Shown: positions 5,983 through 21,684 of the stretch, piece after piece | Numbering within the stretch: the first letter of the stretch is position 1 | How the letters are laid out: every line of letters starts with the position of its first letter | Assembly: GCA_900318605.1 (NCBI GenBank) | Contig: ONLJ01000011.1 | Location: 1-39,108 of the forward strand | DNA length: 39,108 nt | Source: an uncultured Rhodospirillaceae bacterium | GTDB taxonomy: Bacteria; Pseudomonadota; Alphaproteobacteria; RF32; CAG-239 | Reading direction: 5' to 3' | Program-made: the position numbers and the translations under genes | Notes under the pieces: generated by a model | The model's database searches: none | Told to the model about the DNA's origin: nothing | The model's input: the letters and a program-made list of their open reading frames with translations, nothing else

Positions 5983-7263
5983 TTATTTTTTATTCGCCTG
6001 CCAACCTTTAGCCGCACGACTGATACAATCATCATATCTTCCGCAAAATGTTTTTGGCATAGCTATTTTTCCACACACAATTTTTTGACCGACATCTAAA
6101 ATTTCCGGAATTTCCCAAACTTTATTTTCCAACTTATAACGAGCCAAATCGGCAAAAAGACGCGCCTCCATAAAATCCCCGAAATTAGACTGTTTGATAA
6201 CCGGCTCATACGCAAATTTTTCCCGTAAGTTTGCAAAACTCTTTTCATGTTCCGGTAAAATAAAAACTTTTCCTGCTAATAACTTTTCAAAACTTTGACG
6301 AACAACCGGATTTTTCCAACCTCCTCCGAATAAAATAATTTGAGCCGGCATTTTTATATTATCAGGAAGCAGTGTCAGAGCCTGAACGGCAATATATGCA
6401 GCGGCATATTCAAATGTATGAACTACATCTTCAAACGAAATATTTTCCTGTTGCACATATTGAAAAATTCGGCTCTTATGATAATAAGCCGGATCTCCCG
6501 ATTTCGGTAAAGGAGTTTCATAAAAATCCCGTCCGCAATTAAAAATTTCTTTCAGTAATTTTTCGTTCAAATTTCCGTTTTTACCGAACATTCCGTCTTT
6601 ATCATAACTTTCGGCAGAATACCGACGAATATAATTATCGGTATATTCATTAAACGGACCGGCATCTGTACCGAGTAACGCCTTTTTCTCATTTATAATT
6701 GCAAAATTTGAAGTATTTCCGCCGTTATAATAGATACCATCACCTTCCGAAACGGAAATATGAGCATTGTGAGGTGCTACCAATGGTGCGCCGTCAAATC
6801 CTTTCATCAACGGATCAGAACGAAAATCATAAACTACCGGAATACCTGTCAAATCAGCCAACATTTGTCCCGAGCCGATTTGCAATGTATAAGCTTGTGT
6901 CCCGTCAATTTTCGCTTTGGAAGGCGGATTATGATCCAAAGTTTTACCATGAAAGCCGATTGCATCAATAGTAGATTTGTCAATATTATTTTCCCGACAC
7001 ATTTCATTTATACATTCGGCAATCTGCTTTACATAATCATCGTGAACAGATTGAAAATCCGGAATATTTTTGATTTCTTCCGCAGTTTTATTAAAAACTT
7101 CCACCCTTAAATATTCAATCCTTTCCTGCATATTTTTCGTATAAGGACGGGTAAAAGTACAAATATCGGTCATTTTATCACCGTCAAACTCAGTTAATAC
7201 CAAGTCGATGGCATCCATCGAATTTCCCGTCATATTTCCGATTATTTTATATTTTGCCATCAT
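5983..7263 (-). CDS. Anhydro-N-acetylmuramic acid kinase (AnmK)/levoglucosan kinase family protein
   Basis: The family pattern runs along the whole length: GNMTGNSMDAIDLVL, GFHGKTLDH, TLQIGSGQMLADLTGIPVVYDFRSDP...FDGAPLV, YNGGNTSN, TDAGPFNEYTDNY, YDKDGMFGKNGNLNEKLL, LPKSGDP, ILFGGGWKNP. Start set to the ATG pair 7263/7260, preceded by GAGGAG. The ORF-track start 7290 would overlap the upstream gene by 44 nt. Confidence 0.7.
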   Translation of the reverse strand: MMAKYKIIGNMTGNSMDAIDLVLTEFDGDKMTDICTFTRPYTKNMQERIEYLRVEVFNKTAEEIKNIPDFQSVHDDYVKQIAECINEMCRENNIDKSTIDAIGFHGKTLDHNPPSKAKIDGTQAYTLQIGSGQMLADLTGIPVVYDFRSDPLMKGFDGAPLVAPHNAHISVSEGDGIYYNGGNTSNFAIINEKKALLGTDAGPFNEYTDNYIRRYSAESYDKDGMFGKNGNLNEKLLKEIFNCGRDFYETPLPKSGDPAYYHKSRIFQYVQQENISFEDVVHTFEYAAAYIAVQALTLLPDNIKMPAQIILFGGGWKNPVVRQSFEKLLAGKVFILPEHEKSFANLREKFAYEPVIKQSNFGDFMEARLFADLARYKLENKVWEIPEILDVGQKIVCGKIAMPKTFCGRYDDCISRAAKGWQANKK

Positions 7264-8854
7264 ATTCTCCTCTTTTACCTTGCCATTCAATATCTTTTGT
7301 TCTTAAAATACATCTCAAAACATCATAAAATGCTTCAACCAACACACAAGGTTTCACTGCCGAGGTAACCCTTAAATCTGAAGGCCAATGCGAAGGCGGC
7401 ACAAAACATTCAATCGGAATAACCGAAACATTGCAGTCATTCAATATCCGCAAAAAAAGTTCGTAAGCAGTCTGTCGACTGTTTTTTAATCTGATAATAA
7501 TATTAGGTGATACATCATGCAATCCGAAAATATCAAAATATTTTTCCAAATTAAATTTTCTAATCATACTCAAAATCACAAAGTTCTGAAATTTTATATG
7601 TAAATCAATCAGTTCTCTCCATATTTTAAACTCTTGCAATAAAAGAGATTTATCGGATATTTTACCTTTTAATTCCGGCGGAACAGCTGCTTTTCTTTTT
7701 TCCAAAAACGCTTTCTCATAAAAAGCCGTCAATGATACCGTATAATATAAAAAAGACGGCGGAGAACCATAGGTAGTGCTTGCATGCCGATAAAATTTAT
7801 CAATAAAGCTGGCATCGGCCAAAATATGACCTAACTTAAGTCCGGCAATATTATACATTTTAGAATACGAAGCTAATACAATCAGATTTTTATATTTTAT
7901 CGGATCAAGATACGGACTGATTTTTTCATCAAACATAATCTCGTCTGCAATAAAATAAGTTCCGAATCTGGCACATTTTTCCTGTAACACCGGTAAAAAC
8001 TTTTTAATATCGGAAAAGCCACCGGGATTATGCGGAATACTGAATAAAACCACAGCGGTTTTTTCATCAATTCCGTTAATAATATTTTCCATTGAAAAGG
8101 AATAATCCCGATTTAAGAAATATATTTCCGGCTTAAAATAATACCCGATGACATCAATTATCGGAGCATACGTCGGGACAATAACAATACATTTTTTCTG
8201 TCTGTTTCCGAGTTTGGAAATAAAAGACAAAAGTGAGTTCAACCCTTCCGTACCGCCTTGAACGACTGCCGTATTTTCGGCTGAACACTTTTTTTGATTT
8301 CTGCGAAACTGCTCCAGTTGAGCAATTTTACCACGCGTATCCCTATGCCCCAAAGAATCGGAATAACCGAACCAATCATTTTCGGCTGCGACATTTAATC
8401 CCGCTTTAACAAAGGCCGGAGGAAAAAAATAATTCGGGTCATTAACTCCCCGGCTTAAATGTATCGTATTTTTTTTCCTTTTTGATTCACCATAAACATC
8501 ATAGCGGAAAAAACAATCAAAAATTTCTTTTTTTTCTTTAAGCGGAATTTTGTTGTAATTTATCTCAGTCGGTTCTTCTCGCCAATTTTTTACTTTTTCG
8601 GATATGGAAGAAATATTCCAATTTGCACGAAAATAATTTTCATTTTTTGTTTTTTTCCACTCCTTCAGATTTAACGATTTTAATTTTTTCATCAATAAAT
8701 CATATCCGACCGGAATATCCTTTGATAAACGGATATTTTTTAACAAATTTTCTTTAATACAATTATCGACCGGAAAAGACAGGTTCAGCCGTTCAATCAA
8801 TTTTTGAGATTTTTTTTCCAGTTTATGAGCCGTATTGATAAAATCCGTGTTCAT
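7247..8854 (-). CDS. PLP-dependent aminotransferase (fold type I, class I/II) with a long Lys-rich N-terminal extension
   Basis: Core motifs: VVQGGTEGLNSLL, VIVPTYAPI, SIPHNPGG, FIADEIMFDE, and the PLP-lysine motif ASYSKMYNIAGLKLG. About 170 residues precede the recognisable aminotransferase core. Start set to ATG 8854 (MNTDFINT..., AGGAAA upstream). The ORF-track start 8968 is a likely over-extension into the divergent promoter region. Confidence 0.7.
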   Translation of the reverse strand: MNTDFINTAHKLEKKSQKLIERLNLSFPVDNCIKENLLKNIRLSKDIPVGYDLLMKKLKSLNLKEWKKTKNENYFRANWNISSISEKVKNWREEPTEINYNKIPLKEKKEIFDCFFRYDVYGESKRKKNTIHLSRGVNDPNYFFPPAFVKAGLNVAAENDWFGYSDSLGHRDTRGKIAQLEQFRRNQKKCSAENTAVVQGGTEGLNSLLSFISKLGNRQKKCIVIVPTYAPIIDVIGYYFKPEIYFLNRDYSFSMENIINGIDEKTAVVLFSIPHNPGGFSDIKKFLPVLQEKCARFGTYFIADEIMFDEKISPYLDPIKYKNLIVLASYSKMYNIAGLKLGHILADASFIDKFYRHASTTYGSPPSFLYYTVSLTAFYEKAFLEKRKAAVPPELKGKISDKSLLLQEFKIWRELIDLHIKFQNFVILSMIRKFNLEKYFDIFGLHDVSPNIIIRLKNSRQTAYELFLRILNDCNVSVIPIECFVPPSHWPSDLRVTSAVKPCVLVEAFYDVLRCILRTKDIEWQGKRGEYDGKI

Positions 8855-8984
8855 TTTATTTCCTTTTTTTAGCATCATAAACTTAAAAACAAATCTTGTC
8901 CATATAATTATTTTCTTGCCATCTTTTATAAAGTCGTATATAAACATAAATGACTTCAAACATTGCATTTTAAGGAGATTTCAA

Positions 8985-10037
8985 ATGTCTTTTGCCGATT
9001 TAATCAAACCGCATAAATTAGCTCCCGGCGACAAGGTTGCGATTATTTCCCCGTCATGGGCCGGAGCAAGTGTTTATCATGACAGATATTCAGCCGGCAT
9101 AAAGCAAATGGAAGACGAGTTCGGATTGATTGCCGTTGAAGCTCCCAACTCCATGATTGATGCACGGGAAAATGCTGATAATCCGCAAAAAAGGGCAGAT
9201 GACATAAATTGGGCAGTCAAAAATAAAGAAATTAAAGCCATTATTCCGGTAATCGGCGGTGATGATGCCGTACGTCTTTTACCATTTTTGGATTATAAAG
9301 CAATCAGAAACAACCCAAAAATCTTATTGGGCTATTCTGACGGAACCGTTTTACATTTGGCATTTTTGCACGCCGGGGTAAGATCAATCTACGGTCCGGC
9401 AATCATGGCCGGCGGCTTTGCCGAAAACGGGGGGATGTTTGATTATTTCAAAAATTCGGTCAGAAAGACACTTTTTTCAACCGACATCATCGGAAAAATC
9501 GAACCGAATATGGATGGTTGGACAGACGAAGAATTACCATGGAGAGATCCCCAAAATCAGTCCATAAAAAGAAAATTAAAAAAGTCAACCGGCAATAAAG
9601 TGTTGTTGCAAAACGGAAAAGTTCAAGGACATTTGTTCGGCGGATGCATTGAAGTATTGGAAATGCTTAAAGGGACTCCGGTATGGCCGGAAAAAGAATT
9701 TTTCAACGATGCGATACTCTTTTTTGAAACTTCGGAAGAAGCTCCGTCAATTGACTATGTTGTACGGGTATTACGCAATTATGCGGCAACCGGAATTTTG
9801 CAAAAAGCAAACGGGATTATAATCGGCCGCGGCGCTTCATTGCCCGAAAATGAAATGGACAGATACGATCAGGCATTCCTTCATGTAGTTCAAAAAGAAT
9901 GTCACTTAAATATCCCTATCATATCCCAGATGGATTTCGGACATACCGATCCGATGTTTTTATTGCCTTACGGAGCAAAAGCGGAAATTGATTCTTCAAA
10001 CGGAAGTTTTTCAATTTTGGAAAGCGCCGTCATTTAG
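8985..10037 (+). CDS. S66-family serine peptidase, MccF-like (LD-carboxypeptidase family)
   Basis: Start at ATG 8985, after AAGGAG at 8972-8977. Nucleophile motif PKILLGYSDGTVLHL, acid FFETSEE, His motif MDFGHTDPMFLLPYG. The 350-aa length and an inserted Trp-containing loop (DGWTDEELPWRDPQNQSIKRKLKK) fit the MccF clade better than the ~300-aa LdcA. Confidence 0.75.
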   Translation: MSFADLIKPHKLAPGDKVAIISPSWAGASVYHDRYSAGIKQMEDEFGLIAVEAPNSMIDARENADNPQKRADDINWAVKNKEIKAIIPVIGGDDAVRLLPFLDYKAIRNNPKILLGYSDGTVLHLAFLHAGVRSIYGPAIMAGGFAENGGMFDYFKNSVRKTLFSTDIIGKIEPNMDGWTDEELPWRDPQNQSIKRKLKKSTGNKVLLQNGKVQGHLFGGCIEVLEMLKGTPVWPEKEFFNDAILFFETSEEAPSIDYVVRVLRNYAATGILQKANGIIIGRGASLPENEMDRYDQAFLHVVQKECHLNIPIISQMDFGHTDPMFLLPYGAKAEIDSSNGSFSILESAVI

Positions 10038-10053
10038 GTTTACTCTAAGAAAA

Positions 10054-10689
10054 ATGCTGAAAAATATATTATGGGATAATGACGGCACACTGATAGATAC
10101 AGCAACTCTGTTCTGCGATGCCAACAGAGTTGCTTTATTATCAAAAAACATCTTAATGGATGAAAAACTTTTTGTAAAAATCTCGCAAAAACAGGGCAAA
10201 AGTATTTTAGAATATTATGCTCTCAAAAACTCGTGGAACGAAAAACAATTAAAAGAGTTGTATTTGCTTCGACAATCAAAATATACCGAGATGTTGAAAA
10301 ACGGTGCCGCCTTGAACTATGAAGCATTTAACCTTATCGAATGCTTAAAACAAAAAGGCATAAAAAATTTTATGGTTACCGGATCGAGTAAAAATGAACT
10401 ATTGCTTGAATACTCAAAAAAAAGCGATTTATTGGCACTGTTTGACGATATCATCACCGCAGATGACTGTGACAGGCCTAAACCGCATCCGGATTCTTTG
10501 CTTCTGATAATAAAAAAATGGCACCTTTACAGCAACGATTCGGTTGTCATCGACGACCTGCCGAGAGGAATAATTGCCGCCCGAAAAGCAGGGCTGAAAG
10601 CGATTCGTTATAACCCGTTCGTAAAAAAAAGCAAATACGCAAGTTTTTCAAAACTGTTATATTCGTTGGAAAACATTGCAAACAAATAA
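10054..10689 (+). CDS. HAD-superfamily phosphatase (subfamily IA, beta-phosphoglucomutase-like)
   Basis: Start at ATG 10054, 17 nt after the upstream stop. Motif I WDNDGTLIDT (DxDxT), motif II VTGSS, motif III/IV RPKPHPD and VVIDDLPRGIIAARKAGL. Confidence 0.75.
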   Translation: MLKNILWDNDGTLIDTATLFCDANRVALLSKNILMDEKLFVKISQKQGKSILEYYALKNSWNEKQLKELYLLRQSKYTEMLKNGAALNYEAFNLIECLKQKGIKNFMVTGSSKNELLLEYSKKSDLLALFDDIITADDCDRPKPHPDSLLLIIKKWHLYSNDSVVIDDLPRGIIAARKAGLKAIRYNPFVKKSKYASFSKLLYSLENIANK

Positions 10690-10693
10690 ATGC

Positions 10694-11803
10694 CTAGATA
10701 TGCACCGACTTAAAATTATTGATTTTTGCAATATTTTCAACCGATTTTATAATTTCCTCATTTGCCGATGAAATATAAATATTTCCGGAAATCATATCTA
10801 AAAATTCAGGCAAAAAATCGCCGGTTATTACCTTAAGATTCGGAGAAATAATACCACCGCGATATTGCTGTTTCAGACAAATCAAGACTGCTTTTTCTCC
10901 CCTATTCAAAACCTCTTTCAAATATTTCCGTGTCGAACGATTATACCCGATAAACCAATGATTAAAACACGAAAGATTATTTTTATTTTTTTTACTGTAT
11001 TGAAATTGTTCGAGCATTTTCAGTGTCTTTTTTTTCATGAGTTTCAAATCATCAGGTTGCAGCGTATCTCTCCATTCTCCGACCAAACCTTTTCTGAATA
11101 TTCTCGGTTGATTTTTATCTTTGAGATATTTCATTTCCTCACTTTTTATTTTTGAAAAACGTGAATTTTCGACCGCGTTTTCAATTTCTTTTTTGGTTCG
11201 TTTGATTTTGAGACTTTTCAATAAGTTCTTTATTGTTTTCAGCGGATTGAATTTTAAGTCTTCGTATTTGACCAAACAGAGTTGATGTCCTGCCTCGTTC
11301 CCCCATTCAATCCATTTTTCAATATAAGATGTCCAATCATCAAAAGGTTTTTTACCGTAAAATCCCTTTGTATTCAAAAAATCGCTTAAACTTCCCTTCT
11401 CATCGGAAAATCCCCTGCGCCAATTATAATATGAAATAACCGCATCTCTGGCATCTCTTACCAAAAGCACGGCTGTATGAGGTTTGGCATTAACATAACT
11501 TTCGGGATAAAAATGAGTTTTAAAAAAACGAACTTCTCTCGATTTTTCTATCACATATTTTTCTTCAAGTTGTCTCCAATGCTTGCGCCACAAAGGCAAA
11601 ACGACATCGGTTTTTCTTTTATTTTCGGAAATTTTTTCCTGATATCCTTCAATATAATCAAGCCCCAATTCCAGCAATATTCCTCCCATCAAAGAACTTC
11701 CCGAACCTAAATAGCTGGCAAGTATCACATCATCGCTTTCAAGCTTTTTTATATTTTCCGTTGCCAATTTCAAATCAGCATCTTTTTCTGAACCCGACAT
11801 CAA
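10694..11803 (-). CDS. Sulfotransferase-fold (Sulfotransfer_1-like) protein with an atypical 5'-PSB loop and a ~100-aa C-terminal extension
   Basis: 3'-phosphate-binding motif VLLVRDARDAVISYYNW, catalytic-His region FFKTHFYP, YEDLKFNP, and C-terminal FRKGLVGEWRD. The PSB loop reads SYLGSGSSLMG instead of PKSGTTW. The start overlaps the stop of the upstream gene (11800-11803). Confidence 0.75.
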   Translation of the reverse strand: MMSGSEKDADLKLATENIKKLESDDVILASYLGSGSSLMGGILLELGLDYIEGYQEKISENKRKTDVVLPLWRKHWRQLEEKYVIEKSREVRFFKTHFYPESYVNAKPHTAVLLVRDARDAVISYYNWRRGFSDEKGSLSDFLNTKGFYGKKPFDDWTSYIEKWIEWGNEAGHQLCLVKYEDLKFNPLKTIKNLLKSLKIKRTKKEIENAVENSRFSKIKSEEMKYLKDKNQPRIFRKGLVGEWRDTLQPDDLKLMKKKTLKMLEQFQYSKKNKNNLSCFNHWFIGYNRSTRKYLKEVLNRGEKAVLICLKQQYRGGIISPNLKVITGDFLPEFLDMISGNIYISSANEEIIKSVENIAKINNFKSVHI

Positions 11804-12564
11804 AATACTCCGTTATAAAATTTATTGCTCTCATATTTATTTAAATCTTCAATCGTATCAACTTCAATCCAACCGCCGTGAACAATCACGCCTTTAATCG
11901 GATTTCCGGCATTTATCAGATGTTGTAAAAATGTCGTCATATACATATTTTGATATGTTTTTCCGTCATAATCGGCAAACTTATTCATACTTTTATAAAA
12001 GCTGATAATTTCAGGAAGAACATTTTTTTTAAATTTCGTTAATCCGATATATTGCGCTTGTATTCGTGCATAATCTTTCGTTTTTTTCCCGAGTTCCAAA
12101 ATATTATTTTCTTCGGAAAGTATTAAACTCTCAGCATCATCAAGCGGATTATCCATACGAAATCGCCATAATTTTTCCCAATTTTTATCCACTATTGTTG
12201 CAATATTTGCCTCGGAGTTTATCAGTTTTTCCAAGTTATCGAAAGTATAAACAATATCGGAATATGAAACAATCACATCATCATTCAACTCGTTTTCACA
12301 AGAAAACAATGTAGTAACCATATTTGATTTTTCATAATTTTCGGCAAAATATACCTTAACATTTGAACCGGATAAATGCTCTTTTAAGACATCGAATTTA
12401 TATCCGCCGATAACAACAATATCGGAAATACCGTTTTTCTTAAATCTTTCGATAATGATGTCAATCAGAGGTTTTCCGTTCAGTAATACCATACATTTCG
12501 GCACCTCATTTGTCAGAGGTCGCAAACGATTTCCCTGTCCTGCCGCTAAAATAATTGCTTTCAT
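11800..12564 (-). CDS. Nucleotidyltransferase; Cj1416-like CTP:phosphoglutamine cytidylyltransferase candidate
   Basis: 254 aa with the N-terminal NTP-transferase signature MKAIILAAGQGNRLRPLTNEVPKCMV. 4-nt overlaps at both ends. Sits in the context of the three other phosphoramidate-pathway families. Confidence 0.7.
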   Translation of the reverse strand: MKAIILAAGQGNRLRPLTNEVPKCMVLLNGKPLIDIIIERFKKNGISDIVVIGGYKFDVLKEHLSGSNVKVYFAENYEKSNMVTTLFSCENELNDDVIVSYSDIVYTFDNLEKLINSEANIATIVDKNWEKLWRFRMDNPLDDAESLILSEENNILELGKKTKDYARIQAQYIGLTKFKKNVLPEIISFYKSMNKFADYDGKTYQNMYMTTFLQHLINAGNPIKGVIVHGGWIEVDTIEDLNKYESNKFYNGVF

Positions 12565-13175
12565 TTTTCGTTTTTCCCTTCAAAAATTTTTTGGAATAAT
12601 TTTATATCTTCGAGTTGAAAAATTTTTTCTCTTTCCGGATGCCACATAACAGCATAAATGCTTTTATATTTATGATGAAACGCTTCGATAATACCGTCAA
12701 ATGAAACATAATCCGCCTCAAAATCTTCAGGAATGTTTTTAACTGCATAATTATGAAAAGAATTGACCGATCTTCTTAAATTCTCTCCGCGGATTTCGTG
12801 AGATATCGCCACATGATTTTTAACCGATTGCAATGAGCCTCCGAAAAAATTGTTTATTTGCTGCATTCCGTGGCATACCCCGATAACCGGCATATTCGCT
12901 TTGATTGCTTCTTGAAGCAATTTTTTTTCAAATGTATCTCTGATTTTATTGACCTCTTCGGAACTGACGGAAAAAAGGTCATTTCCACCGGAAAGCACGA
13001 TTCCCGATATTTCCATTTTTTGCAAAAACTGCAGAATATCATGTTTTACAGATATCGGAATCAAAAAGAATCCGCAACTTTTCATAAACTCATACCATCT
13101 CACATCGAGAGATTCTCTTATTTCCCGACCGTCATATTCACTTGATATTCTTTGAGTAATGGCAATATTTATCAT
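12561..13175 (-). CDS. Class I glutamine amidotransferase / peptidase C26; Cj1417-like gamma-glutamyl-CDP-amidate hydrolase candidate
   Basis: 204 aa with the nucleophile elbow PVIGVCHGMQQIN and a His-Glu pair in VMWHPERE. 4-nt overlaps with both neighbours. Confidence 0.7.
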   Translation of the reverse strand: MINIAITQRISSEYDGREIRESLDVRWYEFMKSCGFFLIPISVKHDILQFLQKMEISGIVLSGGNDLFSVSSEEVNKIRDTFEKKLLQEAIKANMPVIGVCHGMQQINNFFGGSLQSVKNHVAISHEIRGENLRRSVNSFHNYAVKNIPEDFEADYVSFDGIIEAFHHKYKSIYAVMWHPEREKIFQLEDIKLFQKIFEGKNEK

Positions 13176-15514
13176 CTGATTATCCTTAACTGTTTATTTA
13201 ATGCATCTATTTCGATAAATTCAGCTTTTCGCAGCTCATTAAACCGTTTTTCTCCGATACCTATTACGGCAGGAATATTTTGTTCCATACAGCGAATAGC
13301 CATATGTGAATTAGCCCCGCCGAATTGAGTAATCAGTCCGGCAATATTTTTGGTAAAAATAAAATCATATCCCGGATCAGCCGCTCTGATACAAATAATC
13401 TTATTTTGACAATCAGCATTATGTATTTCTTCTTCACAAATCACTTTAGCTTTAACTTTTCTCTGAGTTACATAATTAGGAATATTTTCATTCTGCTCAA
13501 AGCAAAAAATATCTTTTGCCGAACAGAAAACTTCCGGAAGTTTAACGTATTTGGTATAATAATAATTTATTTTACTTTGGTTGATTTTATTTTGCAAAAA
13601 CTCTTTTTTTTCTTTCACTGTTTCAAAATGTTCAAGCAAATCATAAATCGAAACGTATGATATATCTTCTTTTGAAATTGATAAAGAATGAGCATATTCC
13701 CCAATCAGGAGCAATATATGACTCAAGATTTTTGTGAATATAAATTTACTTTTATCCCGCCACAAAATACTGTCTTCTATGCAATTTAGCAAGTATTTGG
13801 CAGAAAAATTAAGACCTTCCCGTACCAATAACTCATCAATTTTTTGCAGTTGTTTTTGCGTGAAAGAATTTTTTTTCAGAGGTTTTTCAGCAATCGAACT
13901 TGATGTTGACATATTGAAATACGAATTAAAATCTTCATCATATCTCAATGAAAGAATATCATAAGAACTCGGCCGCAAATGTCCCCATTTTTCCAAAAAT
14001 TTTTTTTGAGTTATTTTTTTGTTTCTGAGTTTAACAATATCGAATTGTATTTCTTCGGAAATTATGGGAATCGAACAAATAAAATCATTGTACTGTTGCA
14101 AAGTTATAATTTTCTTTTCCAAAAACGAATCCAAAAATTGTTTTCCGATAAAAGCTGTTCTGGCAATCCCCGCAAACGGCAATGTTCCGAATTTTTTGCA
14201 CGCTTCAAGCAACTCTTTTGTTTTTTCTTCAAAACTCATTTTTTTTGCAAACAACAATTTGCAATTTTCCTGCAATTTTTGCACTGAAAGAATGTCTTTT
14301 TTATACAGCGGAACCGGATAATTAAAAACACTGTTTGTTATTTTTCTCAAAGAACTTAAAAACTCGTTGATTTGCTTTGGCGACAATAAATCGGAAAATT
14401 TTTCCTTAATATTATCGCCGGAAGTTAACGTTGCTGCCGTAAATAAAATGCTGAATTCAGCTTTATCATGCAATTCAGGATTTTTTTCCAAAGCCCTTAA
14501 ATAATAATCCGTAATCTTGCGAGATGTCTTTTTGCTTAAATCGGACGGAATAAAAGAATTAAAATCCGTTCTCACATCAATATACGGACATCCCATAAAA
14601 GAATGAAGCAAACGATAAGGTGCCACATTTTTATAACCGTAATTTTTACGCTGGATTGCCCAGATATCATCGGTTATCAGGGCTTTATATAATGACAAAG
14701 CCAACGGATTCGGACATGTACCGATCATTTCGGCAGGATTCCAATCCGTCATCATGCTGAATATATTACCTTTACCGTCCAACTTATTTTTTCTGCTGTT
14801 ATTTTTGATTTCCTGATAAAGTAATTTCAATTTATCAAAAAAAAGTTCATCTGATATTTTTTCTCTTGTAAAAGAACTCTGGACAATCAGCGGTCGAACT
14901 TGAAAAATGTACAATTTTTTTTGCTTATCAAAGGCAAATTCAATATCCAATGTATCGGAATCATAAATACGTTCTATTTCTTTTACAGCAGATAATAACG
15001 ATTTTATCGGCAACTCTCCCGACAATTTATTCAATTTAACAGACCGTGAAATAACTATGGTTTTTCCCTGTCCCGAACCGGACGTAATCGTATTTGTCTT
15101 ACCGTCATTGGTATAATTGATAATATAATAAGGCGCACCGGTTGCATGATCACGAGTAAACATAACGCCGGAGATCCAAATATCCTTCAGCATCGGTTGG
15201 ATTAAAATTTCATCTTCATCATTGCGATAATCTTTTGTGACAGCGTCAATAGCCTTAACCAAACTTTTTGAATCCGGTTCGACATTCAAAACGGATTTAT
15301 AAACACCGGCATTGGATTGCTCGGCTCGATCTTCGTTATATGCAGATGAGCGAACAATTACCTCAGATTTAAATGCCGATTTAATTTGATTTAAGAAAAA
15401 ATTTTTATTTTTTTTATATTCGGAAAACAAAAAACACAACAAAGGAAGAATTTCAAATTTTTTTGCTTTGTTTTTTAAAAAAATCAGATTTTGCGCCTTT
15501 GAATTTAAAGTCAT
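13172..15514 (-). CDS. ATP-grasp plus phosphohistidine-swivel enzyme; Cj1418-like L-glutamine kinase candidate
   Basis: 780 aa. N-terminal PPDK_N/ATP-grasp signature VIVRSSAYNEDRAEQSNAGVYKSVLNV. The PEP-utilizer mobile-domain His motif (LITQFGGANSHMAIRCMEQNIPAVIG) is at the extreme C-terminus, so there is no PEP/pyruvate-binding TIM-barrel domain as in PpsA/PPDK. Confidence 0.7.
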   Translation of the reverse strand: MTLNSKAQNLIFLKNKAKKFEILPLLCFLFSEYKKNKNFFLNQIKSAFKSEVIVRSSAYNEDRAEQSNAGVYKSVLNVEPDSKSLVKAIDAVTKDYRNDEDEILIQPMLKDIWISGVMFTRDHATGAPYYIINYTNDGKTNTITSGSGQGKTIVISRSVKLNKLSGELPIKSLLSAVKEIERIYDSDTLDIEFAFDKQKKLYIFQVRPLIVQSSFTREKISDELFFDKLKLLYQEIKNNSRKNKLDGKGNIFSMMTDWNPAEMIGTCPNPLALSLYKALITDDIWAIQRKNYGYKNVAPYRLLHSFMGCPYIDVRTDFNSFIPSDLSKKTSRKITDYYLRALEKNPELHDKAEFSILFTAATLTSGDNIKEKFSDLLSPKQINEFLSSLRKITNSVFNYPVPLYKKDILSVQKLQENCKLLFAKKMSFEEKTKELLEACKKFGTLPFAGIARTAFIGKQFLDSFLEKKIITLQQYNDFICSIPIISEEIQFDIVKLRNKKITQKKFLEKWGHLRPSSYDILSLRYDEDFNSYFNMSTSSSIAEKPLKKNSFTQKQLQKIDELLVREGLNFSAKYLLNCIEDSILWRDKSKFIFTKILSHILLLIGEYAHSLSISKEDISYVSIYDLLEHFETVKEKKEFLQNKINQSKINYYYTKYVKLPEVFCSAKDIFCFEQNENIPNYVTQRKVKAKVICEEEIHNADCQNKIICIRAADPGYDFIFTKNIAGLITQFGGANSHMAIRCMEQNIPAVIGIGEKRFNELRKAEFIEIDALNKQLRIIR

Positions 15515-16272
15515 TTTTTACATTTTCCGTTCCATGTTCTGCAAGTATATTTCACAAAAAACTCATCAGGCAGTTTTGCATAAATTTTATCGCATATTCG
15601 ATTGAATATTTTCTCTCCTTCCGGCGTAGCCAAATCCCAATATTTATTCTTAACGCTTTTCCATGCCTTTATGTAGTTTTCCAAGGTCTGCTTAAAATTA
15701 AAATCCATTTCCATATACATTATATCAGTAAAAAGATTCGAATTTTCAATAACTTCGCGTTGGTCTTGTCTTCTGATACCGCGTTCATAATCAGGAATTA
15801 TTTCTTTTATAATTGCTTCAACCTCTTTTTGAAAACCATCATTTAAATCCCGATGATTCCACAAGCAGGAAAAGACGCCGTTTTTTTTCAGGATTCTACC
15901 GGTTTCATGCAAGGCCTTATTTCTATCCAATACATTAAAACTGCTTCCGAAAGCAACTAAATCAAAAGAATCATCAGACAATGTCGTATTATAACCGTCC
16001 GCATCAATCCACGTAATTTGTTTCAAATTTTTCGTTCTTTCTTTTCCGATATCCGACATCGCTTTCGTCGGCTCGACGGCTTTTATAAAACAGGGATATT
16101 TTGCCAATAAAACGCTCAAATTACCGGTTCCGGCACCGATATCGGCAACCTCGAAATTATCAATTAAGGACAAATTCCCGTATTCAATGATGCAATCAAT
16201 AACTTTTTGCGGATAGTTCGGTCTGTATTTATAATACGGGGCTTGAAGCGTATAATCCCAATTTTCGGCCAT
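15511..16272 (-). CDS. Class I SAM-dependent methyltransferase (Cj1419/Cj1420-like candidate)
   Basis: 253 aa with SAM motif I VADIGAGTGNLSVLL and post-I/II motifs AVEPT, FDLVAFGSSFNVL, LKKNGVF. 4-nt overlap with the downstream gene and a 1-nt gap to the upstream gene. Confidence 0.75.
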   Translation of the reverse strand: MAENWDYTLQAPYYKYRPNYPQKVIDCIIEYGNLSLIDNFEVADIGAGTGNLSVLLAKYPCFIKAVEPTKAMSDIGKERTKNLKQITWIDADGYNTTLSDDSFDLVAFGSSFNVLDRNKALHETGRILKKNGVFSCLWNHRDLNDGFQKEVEAIIKEIIPDYERGIRRQDQREVIENSNLFTDIMYMEMDFNFKQTLENYIKAWKSVKNKYWDLATPEGEKIFNRICDKIYAKLPDEFFVKYTCRTWNGKCKK

Positions 16273-16273
16273 T

Positions 16274-16789
16274 TCAGCATTCCTTGACTAAGTCCAGTAT
16301 CATTTCTGCTTTTTTTTCGATATTCCCGTCATCGTTATTATCAATAGTTAAGGATATAAAAGGAGGAAAATCATACTGTTGGTTAATTCCGACAATATTT
16401 TTTGTAGCACCGATATCTTTTTTATACAACCCTTTTTTATCTCTTTGTTTAATTTTTTCGAGGTCGGCAACAATCAATATAACTTTATGGTTGGCGATAT
16501 TTTTCGCATTAAATTCATGAATTTCGGAAAACATTGATATGGTAGCGGCCACAACGTTTATCCCCTGATCCGTCAAAAGTTTGCACAGTCCGGATATTCT
16601 CTTGGCGTTTTGTAATCTTTCCGGCAAAGAATATCCAAGGTCATAATCACACATTTTTCTTACGCAATCGCCGTCAATCAGTACCCAATTTTTTGCCTTT
16701 TGTTTTAACCTATTGTATAAACTTGTAGCGATTGTTGTTTTTCCGACTCCGGAAAAACCGGTAATCCAAATCAGTTGTCCTTTTTGCAT
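16274..16789 (-). CDS. APS-kinase-fold nucleotide 3'-kinase; Cj1415-like cytidine diphosphoramidate kinase candidate
   Basis: 171 aa with P-loop WITGFSGVGKTTIA, then LIDGDCVR and the overall size of CysC-type adenylylsulfate kinases. No ATP sulfurylase gene is nearby. Confidence 0.7.
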   Translation of the reverse strand: MQKGQLIWITGFSGVGKTTIATSLYNRLKQKAKNWVLIDGDCVRKMCDYDLGYSLPERLQNAKRISGLCKLLTDQGINVVAATISMFSEIHEFNAKNIANHKVILIVADLEKIKQRDKKGLYKKDIGATKNIVGINQQYDFPPFISLTIDNNDDGNIEKKAEMILDLVKEC

Positions 16790-16842: not shown

Positions 16843-18042
16843 TTATCGTTCCAGTCCTATTTTAATTTGCGAAACCTTCAAAGCGGCAGGTATTATCTGT
16901 TGAGGTCTGGATAGAAAAGTATATAACTGAACCAAATTTTCCGTTTCCGCAACTTTTTCCAATTTACGATTATAAATTTTATAGCCATTATCCGTAACGA
17001 TAATATTAGTCGGACAAGATAAAAATTGCGAACATTTCTGACGATTGATAACGGACACATTCGTACGGTCATCAACAGCCACGCTAAGCCCCAGACTTTT
17101 CATCCGTTCATAAGTCATATTAGCAAGCGGCTTTAATTTTTGCTGCAACGGAATCACAACATAATCAAAAGGCCTCAAACACTCCGGCAAATTGAAACCG
17201 TATTCATCTCGGTTCGCATCCATTATTGAGAACAAAGTCCTTTGTGTCCCCATACCATAGGTCAAAAACAAAGGTTTTACTTTTTTATTTTCCGAATTTG
17301 TATATTTCAATTTGACCGGTTTATCGGTTGTGTAATGATAATACATTGCTAAGCTGAGAGCTTTTGTTTTTTTGCTTTCATCAATTTGAGGAAGATACAC
17401 ATTTTCCTTTCCGGCCTCGGATAAATAAAAATATTCCGCCATAAGTTTATCGCCGTTATCCTGTTTGTAAAAAGGCAAGCGAAAAGTCGAAAAAATCGAT
17501 TGTGTTAACGAATCAAACATCTCGGAAGATTTAATCAATGAATTCCTGTCGGTATCCACGGAAAAACCTCCAAACATTTTGAATTGTTTCCCTCTTAAGA
17601 AATGCCTCGGATCAGCCATATTGCGATAAAAATTGGTTGAATAAACATATCTCAAAGGCAGTTGAGAGTGCGACAAGTTATTATCCGACAAAACCTTAAT
17701 AAACAAAGGTTCAGGAGTCATCATTAAATGAAATCCCTCCATTTTTCCGGACAGATACATAATTTTGCTTCTGAATTGTTGCCCGATTTCCTGACCCTGT
17801 TCCAAAACATTGTTATCAATAATCGTCGGCGGTTCGATTTGTTCCATACCATAATTGTCAGCTATATCCATCATCGTATTTTCCATATTTCTGACAATCT
17901 TTATACCCAGAGGCGTTAAAAGAGGAATGGCATTAGTATCAAAACAAAACAAAATATCGTTCAACAAATTTTCCGTAGGCTGTTGATTAAACGGCTCACG
18001 CAGATTATAGTTGTTAATATTGATTTGTTTAGATAAAAACAT
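16843..18042 (-). CDS. Class IIa aminoacyl-tRNA synthetase paralogue (ProRS-like catalytic core plus anticodon-binding-like domain, no editing domain)
   Basis: 399 aa. LLTPLGIKIVRNMENTMMDIADNYGMEQIEPPTI (motif 1 region). HLMMTPEPLF...LSHSQLPLRYVYSTNFYRNMADPRHFLRGKQFKMFGGFSV (motif 2 with the Arg retained). LTYGMGTQRTLFSIMD (motif 3, G.G..R). C-terminal FDYVVIPL...GLSVAVDDR resembles a class IIa anticodon-binding domain. Far too divergent from canonical bacterial ProRS to be the housekeeping enzyme. Confidence 0.65.
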   Translation of the reverse strand: MFLSKQININNYNLREPFNQQPTENLLNDILFCFDTNAIPLLTPLGIKIVRNMENTMMDIADNYGMEQIEPPTIIDNNVLEQGQEIGQQFRSKIMYLSGKMEGFHLMMTPEPLFIKVLSDNNLSHSQLPLRYVYSTNFYRNMADPRHFLRGKQFKMFGGFSVDTDRNSLIKSSEMFDSLTQSIFSTFRLPFYKQDNGDKLMAEYFYLSEAGKENVYLPQIDESKKTKALSLAMYYHYTTDKPVKLKYTNSENKKVKPLFLTYGMGTQRTLFSIMDANRDEYGFNLPECLRPFDYVVIPLQQKLKPLANMTYERMKSLGLSVAVDDRTNVSVINRQKCSQFLSCPTNIIVTDNGYKIYNRKLEKVAETENLVQLYTFLSRPQQIIPAALKVSQIKIGLER

Positions 18043-18053
18043 TACTTACATCC

Positions 18054-20525
18054 TTAATCGCGGGTTTTCCTGCACAGATTTATCAATCTCGGCAACAAAG
18101 TTTTCTTATCACGAATAACAATGACTTTAACGTCTTCTCCGAGTGAACTTCTGTAAGACTGAATCTTTTGATCACGGCTTTCGGAAATAGTTCTTTCGAT
18201 ATCTTCATTTGAAGCCTCGGCATCAACCGACAACTCGCACTTCTTTTTACCGTTAACGGTTAACGGAATAGCGATTTCGTTAGTTCTGAAGTCAATTAAA
18301 GAGCTTTCGATTTCCGGCCACTTATCGGTAAATATCGAACGTTTTTGCGCAAAGCATTCTCTCCATAACGTATCAGCCGTATGCGGTGTGAATACCCCGA
18401 TAACCTTAAGAAATTCTTTCATTGCCAAACGCTGTACTTTTCCCGATTCGCTGTCTTCATTGATTTTATCTCTGTTTTTAGCGAGTACGTTCGCAAATTT
18501 ATATATTTTAGCAATCGCCACGTGAAAAGATTGATTGTCCTCTATTTCGCGACGCACATCTTTGGCTGTGTGATGAAGTTCCGCCAAAAGGAACTTATCT
18601 TTCTGACTTAAGTTTTCGGCAACAATCGATTCATCTTCACGCGGTTTAACGGTTCTGTACATACCAACCAACGAACCCAAAAATTTCTTTTTGGCCTGCA
18701 ATCCCGTTTCACTCCATTCCGTATCCAACTGGAACGGCTTATCCGACAACAAATATAAACGCAAAGCATCGGCACCGTATTTTTCAATCATTTCATCAGG
18801 ACGAACAACATTTCCCAAAGACTTTGACATCTTATGTCCGCCCAGTTTGACAATACCGTTATCCAAAAAGTTCTTAACCGGCTCTTTAACCGGAGTCAAA
18901 CCGAGTTTATAAAGAAAATGAGACATAAAACGCAGATAAATCATATGCTGATTGGCATGTTCCAAACCGCCGACATAATAATCAATCGGCATCCATTTTT
19001 TTGCTTTTTGCGGGTTCCAAGGTTGTTCATCATTATGCGGATCCAAAAAACGCCATACATACCACGCCGAACACATAAAGGTATCCAACGTATCCGTTTC
19101 TCGTGTACATATTTCTCCGGTTTGCGGATTTTTATAATTCAAAAATGACTCGTCAACGGTCAGCGGCGATCTACCTTTAGCCAACTCAAAATTCATCTCT
19201 TTCGGCAGTCTTACCGGCAACTCATCTTCTTGAACCGGCTTAAAGTTGCCGCTGCTATCCTTTACAAACGGAATCGGACATCCCCAAAAACGCTGTCTTG
19301 AAATCGACCAATCTTTAAGCTTGTACCTTATTTTTCGCTCGCCGATATTTTTCTTTTCCATATAATCCGAGATAAACTCTCTTGCCTGATTACTTGTTTT
19401 TCCGTTCAATAGCCAACTGTGAATCATCTTATCTTCACCATCAACCAACTTAGGCAAATAATCCAAATTCCGCTTTTGCGCAAATGCGGCATCTTTTTCA
19501 TTTATTGCCGGAATACACGCAACGATTCCCGTACCTTCCGTCGGCATAATATGATCGGATACAAAGACCGGGATCTGTTTTCTGGTCAACGGGTGGATAA
19601 CATAACTTCCGGTAAAGACAGATGATAAATCCGCTTGAGAAACCCTTTCGGTCGAACTTTTCAACAAAGCTTTTTTGATATATTCATCCATTGCATCTTT
19701 TTGAGACGGCACCGTTAATAAATCTGCCAAATCATGTTCCGGAGCAACATAAAGTGCGGAAATACCGAAAACAAATTCCGGATTTTGAATAAAGGTTGTC
19801 ATGTTGAACTTTTGCTCATCATCGGAAAAATGCAAATCGACTCCTTCCATTCTCCCAATCCAGTTACGTTGCATTGCTATAGCCTGAGAAGACCAATTAA
19901 GTTCATCCAATCCGTTCCACAAATCTTCGGCATAATCGGTAATTCTGACAAACCACTGTTCCATTTTTTTTCTTTGAATGGGAGCACCGCTTCTCCAACC
20001 TTTTCCGTCAATAACCTGCTCATTGGCCAAAACAGTTTTATCGACCGGATCCCAATTTACCCACTCATCGGCCCGATATAAAAGATTATTTTCGTAAAGC
20101 TTCAAAATCAGCCACTGTGTCCATTTATAATACTCCGGAGAAGCCGTAACGATTTCTCTGTCCAAATCAAAGGAAAAACCCATCGGTCCGATTTGTTCGT
20201 CTCGCATTTTTTCAATATTTTTTTGAGTCCATTTTTCCGGATGAACATTATTCTTAATTGCGGCATTTTCGGCAGGTAGTCCGAAAGCATCCCAACCGAT
20301 GGGATGTAAAACATCTTTTCCCATAAAACGTTCCAAACGCGCCAACGTATCGGAAATTGAATACACCAGTGCGTGTCCCATGTGCGCATTTCCAGAAGGA
20401 TATGGAAACATACCGAGAATATATGATTTTTGTCCCGATGTTTCACGAGTCGTATCGACTCCTTCTTCTTTCCATTTTCTTTGAATTTCTTCTTCTTGCT
20501 GCCTTATATTCATAGCTTCAGCCAT
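18054..20525 (-). CDS. leuS: Leucyl-tRNA synthetase (bacterial type, atypical/reduced)
   Basis: 823 aa with MFPYPSGNAHMGH (HIGH), GWDAFGLPAENAAIKNN, VLANEQVIDG, RDW-type [42 protein letters not shown] (KMSKS) and YGADALRLYLL. Confidence 0.93.
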   Translation of the reverse strand: MAEAMNIRQQEEEIQRKWKEEGVDTTRETSGQKSYILGMFPYPSGNAHMGHALVYSISDTLARLERFMGKDVLHPIGWDAFGLPAENAAIKNNVHPEKWTQKNIEKMRDEQIGPMGFSFDLDREIVTASPEYYKWTQWLILKLYENNLLYRADEWVNWDPVDKTVLANEQVIDGKGWRSGAPIQRKKMEQWFVRITDYAEDLWNGLDELNWSSQAIAMQRNWIGRMEGVDLHFSDDEQKFNMTTFIQNPEFVFGISALYVAPEHDLADLLTVPSQKDAMDEYIKKALLKSSTERVSQADLSSVFTGSYVIHPLTRKQIPVFVSDHIMPTEGTGIVACIPAINEKDAAFAQKRNLDYLPKLVDGEDKMIHSWLLNGKTSNQAREFISDYMEKKNIGERKIRYKLKDWSISRQRFWGCPIPFVKDSSGNFKPVQEDELPVRLPKEMNFELAKGRSPLTVDESFLNYKNPQTGEICTRETDTLDTFMCSAWYVWRFLDPHNDEQPWNPQKAKKWMPIDYYVGGLEHANQHMIYLRFMSHFLYKLGLTPVKEPVKNFLDNGIVKLGGHKMSKSLGNVVRPDEMIEKYGADALRLYLLSDKPFQLDTEWSETGLQAKKKFLGSLVGMYRTVKPREDESIVAENLSQKDKFLLAELHHTAKDVRREIEDNQSFHVAIAKIYKFANVLAKNRDKINEDSESGKVQRLAMKEFLKVIGVFTPHTADTLWRECFAQKRSIFTDKWPEIESSLIDFRTNEIAIPLTVNGKKKCELSVDAEASNEDIERTISESRDQKIQSYRSSLGEDVKVIVIRDKKTLLPRLINLCRKTRD

Positions 20526-21336: not shown

Positions 21337-21411
21337 ACAATCCTCCTTTTTTTCGATAAATAAAGGGAGAAACACTTATGCCTTCTCCCTTTATTTTACA
21401 AAGTTTTCGGA

Positions 21412-21627
21412 TTATTCAGCAGCAGCCAAAGTGCAACCGCAATCTTCGTCTAAATACATAACGGCTTTTTCCTCGCAGAAACACTTACGAGAGTAATATT
21501 CCGATTTTTTACCCTTGTTGAATTCGGAAACCGGACGATGATAGCCCATAACTCTGGTCCAAATCTCGCAAGGTTGTCTTTCAGCGTCGGTTAATTTTAC
21601 TTCGTTAATGTCAATAGTGTTGTTCAT
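21412..21627 (-). CDS. Stand-alone glycyl-radical domain subunit of class III RNR (NrdD C-terminal domain as a separate 71-aa protein)
   Basis: ERQPCEIWTRVMGYHRPVSEFNKGKKSEYYSRK matches the NrdD C-terminal R-x-x-G-Y-x-R-P-V-x-x-(W/F)-N-x-G-K-x-x-E glycyl-radical motif. Own RBS (AGAGGAA) and ATG, 57 nt after the nrdD stop. Confidence 0.75.
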   Translation of the reverse strand: MNNTIDINEVKLTDAERQPCEIWTRVMGYHRPVSEFNKGKKSEYYSRKCFCEEKAVMYLDEDCGCTLAAAE

Positions 21628-21684
21628 TTTTTATTCCTCTAAATTTTAAGTTAATACCAAATTGTTCTTTTTTTTATGTAGCTT

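Follow-up and report, generated by a model that had tools for sequence, protein, structure and literature searches.

The gene cluster analysed here lies on contig ONLJ01000011.1 of an uncultured Rhodospirillaceae bacterium (assembly GCA_900318605.1), and the whole stretch of 39,108 nucleotides is called the window below. Its minus strand carries five consecutive genes whose products resemble the Campylobacter jejuni enzymes Cj1415-Cj1419 from the pathway for O-methyl phosphoramidate (MeOPN), and a sixth gene, for a protein of the sulfotransferase fold, adjoins them (Table 1). Open reading frames (ORFs) were taken from the six-frame ORF list of the window. The five ORFs have the extents, sizes and minus-strand orientation given for them in an earlier sequence-only reading, which had proposed a complete Campylobacter-type donor cassette. 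They belong to an unbroken string of minus-strand genes that runs from a leucyl-tRNA synthetase (LeuRS) gene through the sulfotransferase-fold gene over 9.8 kb, with a largest gap of 53 nt.

Stop and start codons within the cassette overlap as ATGA at 15511-15514, 13172-13175 and 12561-12564, as had been read before, and a 1-nt spacer separates the kinase stop from the methyltransferase start. A fourth 4-nt overlap, claimed at 11800-11803 between the cytidylyltransferase and the sulfotransferase-fold genes (junction GTATTTTGATGTCG, also given as TTTTGATGTCG), exists only if the latter gene starts at TTG. The next ATG makes a 1-nt TGATG overlap with the cytidylyltransferase stop, and this ATG start agrees with the called genes of relatives.

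Donor genes and their Campylobacter counterparts

The reference was a locus of C. jejuni (L051) that came from scanning species-representative genomes; its ORFs have the lengths expected for Cj1420-Cj1415, and its proteins were compared with all ORFs of the window by reciprocal BLAST. The predicted partner was returned in each case. Reciprocal best matches were formed by Cj1419 and the window methyltransferase (56% identity), Cj1416 and the NTP-transferase (47%), Cj1415 and the protein of adenylyl-sulfate (APS) kinase fold (40%), Cj1418 and the 780-aa protein (38% over 787 columns), and Cj1417 and the amidotransferase (34%). Cj1420 also found the Cj1419-like methyltransferase, more weakly (34%). 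The earlier assignments to Cj1415, Cj1416, Cj1417 and Cj1418 are supported at the level of homology by these matches and by shared NCBIfam models, and the methyltransferase, which had been likened to Cj1419 and Cj1420 together, pairs with Cj1419 only; Cj1420 has no separate counterpart.

The best NCBIfam models of the window proteins and of their C. jejuni partners are identical. The 780-aa protein matches NF004508 over its full length with 862 bits (Cj1418, 1173 bits; cutoff 501). It contains two Pfam domains only, with the PEP-utilizers mobile domain at 704-771 and no phosphoenolpyruvate (PEP)/pyruvate-binding domain, and its scores with the models of PEP synthase, pyruvate phosphate dikinase (PPDK) and rifampin phosphotransferase are 20-55 bits against cutoffs of 450-1700. 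These Pfam and NCBIfam results agree with the earlier statement that the enzyme has no PEP/pyruvate domain and is not PpsA or PPDK. The window kinase reaches 158 bits with NF004041 (Cj1415, 291; cutoff 127) and 119 bits with the apsK model TIGR00455 (Cj1415, 127), for which both proteins stay below the cutoff of 138.7. Since it lies above the NF004041 cutoff and below that of apsK, and Cj1415 does alike, we place it by its scores in the Cj1415 subfamily rather than in CysC. The rival families that the sequence-only reading had named, PpsA, rifampin phosphotransferase and CysC, are thus not the best homologues of these proteins. The amidotransferase matches NF045546, named 'gamma-glutamyl-CDP-amidate hydrolase', with 172.8 bits, below the cutoff of 250 (E 9e-51; Cj1417, 331 bits), and the next family scores 59 bits. 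For the window NTP-transferase and Cj1416 there is no dedicated NCBIfam model, and their generic matches are identical. PDB sequence searches with the cassette proteins returned generic fold relatives only (rifampin phosphotransferase, LicC, APS kinases and GMP synthase subunits): the sole match of the 780-aa protein is to the phosphotransferase family (rifampin phosphotransferase, E 7e-4), and the nearest solved structure to the 254-aa protein is LicC, a CTP:phosphocholine cytidylyltransferase.

Homologues of the 780-aa protein form at least 2,730 protein clusters at E <= 1e-10 and occur in at least 587 GTDB species-representative genomes, from Campylobacterota, Bacteroidota, Spirochaetota, Bacillota, Bdellovibrionota, Planctomycetota and Omnitrophota to several proteobacterial classes. 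From the scan of these genomes 80 species loci with such homologues were kept for a survey. Homologues of the kinase, methyltransferase, hydrolase and cytidylyltransferase lie no more than 8 kb from the glutamine kinase gene in 67, 56, 72 and 71 of the 80 loci, respectively, and all five families are found together in 47; the latter co-occurrence excludes chance clustering by far. The gene order of the window had been noted to differ from that of Campylobacter. This is so, but the order kinase-methyltransferase-glutamine kinase-hydrolase-cytidylyltransferase recurs exactly in at least 9 of the 80 loci, in other phyla (L003, L008, L011, L012, L029, L059 and L067 among them). The cassette outside Campylobacter is therefore widespread and no oddity, and the earlier account is to be corrected in this respect. 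In the literature the modification is described as confined to Campylobacter (PMC6429109, PMC9561416), and the one exception found is a preprint noting similar genes in Borg elements. Among the matches listed, no species-representative genome has a glutamine kinase more than 44% identical to that of the window. Two surveyed loci contain apparent fusion ORFs, one matching both methyltransferase and kinase (L007) and one matching both kinase and glutamine kinase (L080), which are either fusions or an effect of ORF calling.

Every motif quoted in the sequence-only reading was confirmed: the kinase has GFSGVGKTT, the amidotransferase GVCHGMQ and WHPE, the NTP-transferase AAGQGNRLRPLT and the 780-aa protein GGANSHMAIRC. 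The swivel histidine within GGANSHM has the number 737 in the window protein as in its C. jejuni orthologue, and all 80 homologues aligned keep it; His737 is reportedly the phosphorylated residue of Cj1418. Alignments show that the P-loop and DGD motifs of the kinase are kept in 60-62 of 62 cassette-linked homologues, Cys101, His179 and Glu181 of the hydrolase in 69 of 69, and G9, G11, R13 and K23 of the cytidylyltransferase in 70 of 71. Taken together, the matches, models and residues support the view that the five genes are homologues of the Campylobacter phosphoramidate-donor set. For Cj1415-Cj1418 it is established what each does biochemically in the synthesis of CDP-phosphoramidate 3'-phosphate (PMC11800397, PMC6429109); Cj1419 and Cj1420 are listed without a functional assignment (PMC11800397).

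Table 1. Positions of the features discussed, in the window and in loci used for comparison (aaRS, aminoacyl-tRNA synthetase; ProRS, prolyl-tRNA synthetase; SAM, S-adenosylmethionine)
Feature	Locus	Position	Strand	Domain or basis
Cj1415-like kinase, predicted cytidine diphosphoramidate 3'-kinase, 171 aa	window	16274-16789	-	Pfam APS_kinase
Cj1419-like SAM-dependent methyltransferase, 253 aa, predicted O-methylation of phosphoramidate	window	15511-16272	-	Pfam Methyltransf_11/25
Cj1418-like putative L-glutamine kinase, 780 aa, ATP-grasp and C-terminal phosphohistidine swivel domain	window	13172-15514	-	Pfam PPDK_N and PEP-utilizers
Cj1417-like putative gamma-glutamyl-CDP-amidate hydrolase, 204 aa, class I amidotransferase fold	window	12561-13175	-	Pfam Peptidase_C26/GATase
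Cj1416-like putative CTP:phosphoglutamine cytidylyltransferase, 254 aa	window	11800-12564	-	Pfam NTP_transferase
Sulfotransferase-fold protein, 368-369 aa, extra C-terminal alpha/beta domain	window	10694-11803 (10694-11800 from ATG)	-	Sulfotransfer_1, E 2e-27
ProRS-like class II aaRS paralogue, 399 aa, without editing domain	window	16843-18042	-	Pfam tRNA-synt_2b
LeuRS, 823 aa	window	18054-20525	-	Pfam tRNA-synt_1, LeuRS editing and anticodon domains
MccF-clade S66 serine peptidase, ~349 aa	window	8988-10037 (ORF listed from 8835)	+	PDB matches
HAD-family hydrolase, 233 aa, membership uncertain	window	9988-10689	+	HAD_2, E 3e-23
Aminotransferase-domain protein, 573 aa	window	7247-8968	-	class I/II aminotransferase domain 174-536
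Anaerobic ribonucleotide reductase NrdD/NrdG	window	20644-23784	-
AdhE	window	33815-36415	+
DUF2972/Cj1421-family protein with RDPIxxxKS	L051	93-1235
DUF2972/Cj1421-family protein with RDPIxxxKS	L060	6878-8281
DUF2972/Cj1421-family protein with RDPIxxxKS	L052	6390-8048
DUF2972/Cj1421-family protein with RDPIxxxKS	L054	7664-8704
CysQ-like Inositol_P gene	L006	2978-3727
CysQ-like Inositol_P gene	L007	12932-13678
CysQ-like Inositol_P gene	L014	6115-6855
CysQ-like Inositol_P gene	L025	4907-5755
CysQ-like Inositol_P gene (others occur)	L063	12465-13220
CysQ-like Inositol_P gene adjoining sulfotransferase gene	L086	9117-9998
CysQ-like Inositol_P gene adjoining sulfotransferase gene	L087	40-849
216-230-aa gene	L001	10102-10782		no Pfam match
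216-230-aa gene	L082	12180-12863		no Pfam match
216-230-aa gene	L083	14515-15207		no Pfam match
216-230-aa gene	L084	11000-11650		no Pfam match
ProRS-like/S66 pair without cassette (also L091, L093, L094)	L090	5334-9521
ProRS-like/S66 pair without cassette	L092	9920-15051
ProRS-like/S66 pair without cassette	L095	3485-7700
Apparent fusion ORF, methyltransferase and kinase	L007	8709-9995
Apparent fusion ORF, kinase and glutamine kinase	L080	9113-12322
Apparent fusion ORF, sulfotransferase and SAM methyltransferase, 1442 aa	L016	13720-18048
ORF with sulfotransferase domain and TPR repeats, 1168 aa	L039	14918-18424

The sulfotransferase-fold gene behind the cassette

The AlphaFold model of the sixth protein (mean predicted local distance difference test score, pLDDT, 89.8) has an N-terminal sulfotransferase fold followed by a C-terminal alpha/beta domain. 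Its top Foldseek matches are cytosolic sulfotransferases with bound 3'-phosphoadenosine 5'-phosphate (PAP) or 3'-phosphoadenosine 5'-phosphosulfate (PAPS), with probability 1.0 and a target-normalised TM-score of about 0.6. His96, Arg115 and Ser123 are invariant in both alignments made; Asp119 and Arg236 are invariant, and Asp116, Arg118, Lys237 and Gly238 are invariant or nearly so; the RDxRDxxxS and RKG motifs are kept. We take His96 to be the catalytic base, and the residues of the RDxRDxxxS and RKG motifs to be the 3'-phosphate-binding residues of the sulfotransferase family. The C-terminal domain (residues ~280-368, ~90 aa) has no Pfam match in the window protein. In two orthologues, P0154 (305-399) and P0155 (295-406), the extra domain shows a weak match to ThiF (the MccB family; E 1.6e-4, below the gathering score), and this segment lacks the N-terminal nucleotide-binding part.

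Seven loci combine the cassette with a sulfotransferase gene and a gene resembling prolyl-tRNA synthetase (ProRS), and they are referred to as the cluster type. In L001 and L082-L087 sulfotransferase-fold orthologues accompany the cassette, in three arrangements and at 38-68% identity, of which 38-49% applies to the rearranged architectures. In the survey 17 species loci out of 80, in many phyla, have a Pfam-supported sulfotransferase-fold ORF beside their cassette, at a distance of no more than 22 nt in 15 of the 17; the count excludes the Lachnospiraceae proteins of L043, L045, L031, L010 and L067, which are matched by an iterated hidden Markov model and are not recognised by Pfam. Word-indexed homologue searches for the sulfotransferase-fold and ProRS-like proteins reached close relatives only. 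Directly after the cassette of L016 one apparent fusion ORF unites sulfotransferase and SAM methyltransferase domains. The ORF of L039 in which a sulfotransferase domain is joined to TPR repeats is either a fusion or an effect of ORF calling.

The family of the Campylobacter transferases Cj1421/Cj1422, DUF2972, occurs in 10 of the 80 loci, mostly of Campylobacter and Helicobacter, and in none of the 80 together with a sulfotransferase-fold ORF. NCBIfam names the model NF058596 'O-methyl phosphoramidate transferase'; the C. coli protein matches it, and both the C. jejuni and C. coli proteins match DUF2972. A DUF2972 profile built from Campylobacter and Helicobacter proteins matched no ORF in the window or L001, and DUF2972 is not listed among the called genes of L082-L087. 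When the two families were aligned with each other by hhalign, 331 columns of DUF2972 and the sulfotransferase profile were matched with P 1.8e-4 and 48% probability after the alignment had been cleaned; an earlier run with a fragment-laden alignment gave 10%. In the cleaned comparison the DUF2972 segment 'RDPIxxxKS' falls on the 3'-phosphate motif and 'YlDm..i....a..Tm' on 'YEDLK..p..ti', so the Campylobacter DUF2972 transferases may be divergent members of the sulfotransferase fold. DUF2972 proteins with the RDPIxxxKS segment are listed in Table 1; in the Paraglaciecola member the segment reads 'RNPYDMVKS'.

In the scheme that we propose, the donor steps are drawn by homology from the characterised C. 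jejuni enzymes, and the transfer and methylation steps are put forward in this analysis. The 254-aa cytidylyltransferase would join the product of the 780-aa L-glutamine kinase with CTP to CDP-L-glutamine, the 204-aa Cys-His-Glu hydrolase would release glutamate and leave cytidine diphosphoramidate, and the 171-aa APS-kinase-like enzyme would phosphorylate the 3'-OH to yield 3'-phospho-CDP-amidate, a structural analogue of PAPS. The sulfotransferase-fold protein would bind this 3'-phosphonucleotide donor as sulfotransferases bind PAPS, pass the phosphoramidate group to an acceptor hydroxyl and release 3',5'-CDP, and the Cj1419-like methyltransferase would add the O-methyl group. Because the donor would be a PAPS analogue made by an enzyme of APS-kinase fold, a PAPS-type fold would be natural for the transferase, which would replace the DUF2972 transferases Cj1421/Cj1422 of Campylobacter. 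Domain annotation of the window ORFs found no capsule or glycosyltransferase genes, in agreement with the earlier remark that no capsule genes are adjacent, and the acceptor might be another surface glycan or a small molecule.

The scheme would also give a place to CysQ-like genes of the Inositol_P family, which at least 14 species loci carry inside the cassette or next to it, some of them between the hydrolase and cytidylyltransferase genes; the window has none. Inositol_P is the family of the phosphatase that removes PAP, the by-product of sulfotransfer. Since a 3',5'-bisphosphate nucleotide by-product would need clearing, such neighbours are to be expected, and they fit a phosphatase that clears 3',5'-CDP.

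We therefore judge it reasonably probable that the sulfotransferase-fold gene encodes a phosphoramidate transferase using 3'-phospho-CDP-amidate, and that the region is more than a donor cassette, probably a complete phosphoramidate-tagging system. The sequence-only reading had drawn the unit at 11800-16789 and treated the sulfotransferase-fold gene as a neighbour. The five donor genes of that unit stand, but since the sixth gene is probably the missing transferase, the unit should be drawn larger. The cassette itself is of a known and widespread kind, and what appears to be new is the sulfotransferase-fold enzyme in the transferase position; a literature search found no paper connecting MeOPN with sulfotransferases.

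Several points weigh against this interpretation. We infer the donor, the acceptor and the product alike from sequence. The window hydrolase stays with its 173 bits below the curated NF045546 cutoff of 250, the homology between DUF2972 and the sulfotransferases is weak (48% hhalign probability), and knockout of Cj1419 left the capsule structure of C. jejuni unchanged (PMC11800397), so that a methylation role of the Cj1419-like enzyme is unproven. The catalytic loop lysine of the sulfotransferases (PKSGTT) is a glycine in the window protein, where 'SYLGSGSSL' aligns to 'TYPKSGTHW' of PDB 7d1x, and the other cassette-linked members have proline, serine or cysteine at this position; without the lysine the chemistry may differ, or the protein may only bind. 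Finally, about 53 of the 80 cassette loci show no recognisable sulfotransferase within 10 kb, and no DUF2972. The pairing of sulfotransferase and cassette is thus frequent, not universal.

Competing explanations and the conserved neighbours

One could argue that the region from LeuRS to the S66 peptidase is a small-molecule cluster for a phosmidosine-like compound, an N-aminoacyl (O-methyl) phosphoramidate that mimics an aminoacyl-adenylate. The Campylobacter-type pathway would then supply the phosphoramidate, the sulfotransferase-fold enzyme would put it on a nucleoside or another small acceptor, the Cj1419-like enzyme would O-methylate it, the ProRS-like protein would act as a ligase acylating the P-NH2 with an amino acid, and the MccF-type peptidase, perhaps with the linked LeuRS, would protect the producer. 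We regard this explanation as attractive and yet unlikely. The linkage in phosmidosine is an O-methyl N-prolyl phosphoramidate. The resemblance of phosmidosine to prolyl-AMP has been described (PMC11229370), as has its nature as a phosphoramidate nucleotide antibiotic (PMC6429109); MccF confers self-immunity by cleaving aminoacyl-phosphoramidate nucleotides, and additional copies of an aaRS are known to serve immunity as well (PMC8323819, PMC5059758).

The ProRS-like protein aligns with bacterial ProRS in two blocks and skips the INS editing domain, and its scores with the ProRS models (80, 75 and 64 bits) lie below the cutoffs of 558, 550 and 307, which places it outside ProRS proper. It belongs to a separate family of about 70-110 representative clusters of ~390 aa, which score ahead of true ProRS and keep Arg140 of motif 2, Arg268 of motif 3 and Glu111 of the TxE motif. 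That the paralogue retains residues binding ATP and the amino acid speaks for the small-molecule cluster, and so does the fact that its orthologues stand with the cassette and the sulfotransferase gene in 7 of 7 loci of the cluster type, in spite of 31-32% identity and in three gene orders. The AlphaFold model of this protein is poor (pLDDT 50). In the same direction points the S66 peptidase, for which the PDB matches (B. anthracis BA3275 'MccC family protein', E 2e-100; MccF, 1e-35; LD-carboxypeptidases, 1e-20 to 1e-5) indicate a place nearer to the MccF clade than to LdcA. Listed from a TTG at 8835, its ORF would have 400 aa and run into the end of the aminotransferase gene; judging from homologues and PDB matches, the true start is the ATG at 8988, giving 349 aa. 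The peptidase occurs in 6 of the 7 loci, and in L086 it is embedded in the cluster between the sulfotransferase and methyltransferase genes. LeuRS, whose gene lies 11 nt upstream of the ProRS-like gene in the window, also occurs in 6 of the 7 loci, at 44-51% identity and in three arrangements (the window with L001, L082 and L083; L086; L087). The lack of glycosyltransferase and capsule genes in all seven loci and the weak ThiF match in some sulfotransferase orthologues are further points in favour of a small-molecule product.

Against it stands that the ProRS-like/S66 pair is found adjacent in six loci of a metagenome scan (L090-L095) with no cassette within the sequence available, so that the pair looks like an uncharacterised module of its own and is maybe a mere neighbour. 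LeuRS and the pair are absent from the 80 other cassette loci, and no exporter is evident. The NrdDG synteny is common to the window and L084, and part of the neighbourhood conservation is therefore simply ancestral. In L090, L092 and L095 the pair is accompanied by a truncated paralogue of the class IIb aaRS core (tRNA-synt_2, 334-401 aa) as well as by SAM methyltransferases, one or two in number. The ProRS-like gene of L084, L091 and L094 is followed by a protein with a DnaJ domain (409-414 aa).

A further explanation would split the region into two systems: the cassette would make a donor for a transferase encoded elsewhere, and an ordinary PAPS sulfotransferase would lie next to it by accident or share only the kinase with it. 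The good Sulfotransfer_1 match (E 2e-27), the nearest structures, which are PAPS enzymes, the fully canonical 3'-phosphate-binding residues and the APS-kinase fold of the kinase are all compatible with such a sulfotransferase. However, the start of its gene overlaps the cytidylyltransferase stop, and 15 further species loci, of unrelated phyla, have a sulfotransferase-fold ORF directly at the cassette, never with DUF2972, by which adjacency through chance is ruled out. The window contains no ATP sulfurylase gene for sulfate activation, the kinase is of the Cj1415 subfamily and under the apsK cutoff, and the loop lysine of PAPS sulfotransferases is missing. Additionally, no DUF2972 match exists in the window, and the cluster would be left without any transferase if the sulfotransferase gene were discounted. 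We thus give the two-system explanation only a small chance of being right. The naive annotation, by which a PEP synthase or rifampin phosphotransferase, a CysC, a PuuD-like amidohydrolase and a LicC-like transferase lie together by chance as housekeeping enzymes with no relation to each other, is highly improbable and effectively refuted by the NCBIfam scores, the recurring gene order and the reciprocal BLAST matches, even though homologues bear database names such as 'phosphoenolpyruvate synthase/pyruvate phosphate dikinase' and 'PEP/pyruvate-binding domain-containing protein' and NF004041 itself is labelled adenylyl-sulfate kinase: the scores with the models for PEP synthase, PPDK and rifampin phosphotransferase lie far under the cutoffs, the 780-aa protein has no PEP/pyruvate domain and a PDB match of E 7e-4 only, and the five families occur together in 47 of 80 loci.

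Other neighbours are conserved in part. The HAD gene is convergent with the sulfotransferase-fold gene and has the same place in L001 and L083. Four relatives have, after the sulfotransferase gene, a gene for 216-230 aa in which a Nudix-box-like segment (GGFVNIDKNKKETPPEAALREFGEECC) can be seen by eye; this gene is missing from the window, where the HAD gene adjoins the sulfotransferase gene instead. The 573-aa protein has an N-terminal extension before its aminotransferase domain, clusters by BLAST with stand-alone HAD genes and is kept close to the cluster in five loci, L084 among them; its best NCBIfam match is weak (the guanitoxin enzyme GntC, 80 bits, cutoff 415).

The remaining genes of the window are housekeeping genes (SecA, AnmK, NrdDG, TrpRS, ClpB, TolC, glycogen phosphorylase and AdhE). 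By its NrdD/NrdG and AdhE the host would appear to live anaerobically. SecA, AdhE and NrdD fall into 90%-identity clusters together with MAG proteins that bear the name 'Alphaproteobacteria bacterium'. The cassette lies 5-7 points below its flanks in guanine-plus-cytosine (GC) content, with 32-35% in the cassette region (10001-16000) and 39-41% in the adjoining LeuRS gene (18001-20000), and this lower GC suggests horizontal acquisition. A scan for promoters and terminators gave a result no better than shuffled sequence, and PADLOC found no membership in defence systems.

Significance and comparison with known systems

The decoration of capsule with methyl phosphoramidate is treated in the literature as a reaction still to be elucidated (PMC12409886), and together with the missing assignments of Cj1419 and Cj1420 (PMC11800397) this leaves the last steps of the MeOPN pathway biochemically open. 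The donor pathway occurs in hundreds of species of many phyla, and outside the Campylobacter group it is repeatedly paired with small, soluble and canonical-looking sulfotransferase-fold proteins. This offers a testable answer to how 3'-phospho-CDP-amidate could be used, namely by transfer of the group in the manner of PAPS enzymes, after which a CysQ-like protein would clear the by-product, and it provides tractable enzymes for assays of phosphoramidyl transfer. It would also imply a large unexplored pool of glycans or metabolites modified through phosphorus-nitrogen (P-N) bonds in gut and environmental bacteria. If the phosmidosine-like explanation were true, the cluster would be the first genetic route to N-acyl methyl-phosphoramidate antibiotics and would give the first assigned function to the ProRS-like family and to Cj1419.

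With the aminoacyl-nucleotide phosphoramidates of the microcin C, agrocin 84 and phosmidosine type and their immunity genes (MccF, AgnB2), the window has in common that a MccF-clade S66 peptidase, a paralogue of an aaRS and an aaRS of full length lie beside predicted genes of P-N bond synthesis (PMC8323819). However, the window contains neither the MccA/MccB peptide-adenylation system nor agn genes, and the glutamine kinase route would be the source of its P-N bond. The aaRS-like/S66 pair exists also without the cassette, and we offer a link to microcin C-type systems as a hypothesis only.

The closest known system is the MeOPN pathway of C. jejuni (Cj1415-Cj1422). The window has one-to-one homologues of Cj1415-Cj1419 with the same catalytic residues, likewise clustered and co-oriented, and even the lengths agree closely: 170, 253, 200, 779 and 253 aa for Cj1415, Cj1416, Cj1417, Cj1418 and Cj1419 against 171, 254, 204, 780 and 253 aa in the window. 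The systems differ in gene order, which is Cj1420-1419-1418-1417-1416-1415 in C. jejuni and kinase-methyltransferase-glutamine kinase-hydrolase-cytidylyltransferase in the window, and in the number of methyltransferases, of which C. jejuni has two and the window one, without a Cj1420 counterpart. Contrary to the C. jejuni cassette, which lies in a capsule locus, that of the window lies outside one, in an uncultured alphaproteobacterium of gut type and at 34-56% identity. The transferase is DUF2972/NF058596 in C. jejuni, whereas the window has a canonical-looking sulfotransferase-fold protein instead.

With PAPS-dependent sulfotransferases such as SULT1E1 and SULT2A1 this protein has in common the fold, the catalytic histidine and the RDxxDxxxS and RKG motifs. 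It differs from them by a glycine in place of the loop lysine (PKSGTT) and by the extra C-terminal domain of ~90 aa. PAPS sulfotransferases use a 3'-phosphorylated nucleotide donor made by an enzyme of APS-kinase fold, and the same is predicted for the window protein. They move SO3, whereas the partner pathway in the window would make a cytidine phosphoramidate donor, from which a transfer of PO2(NH2) is predicted.

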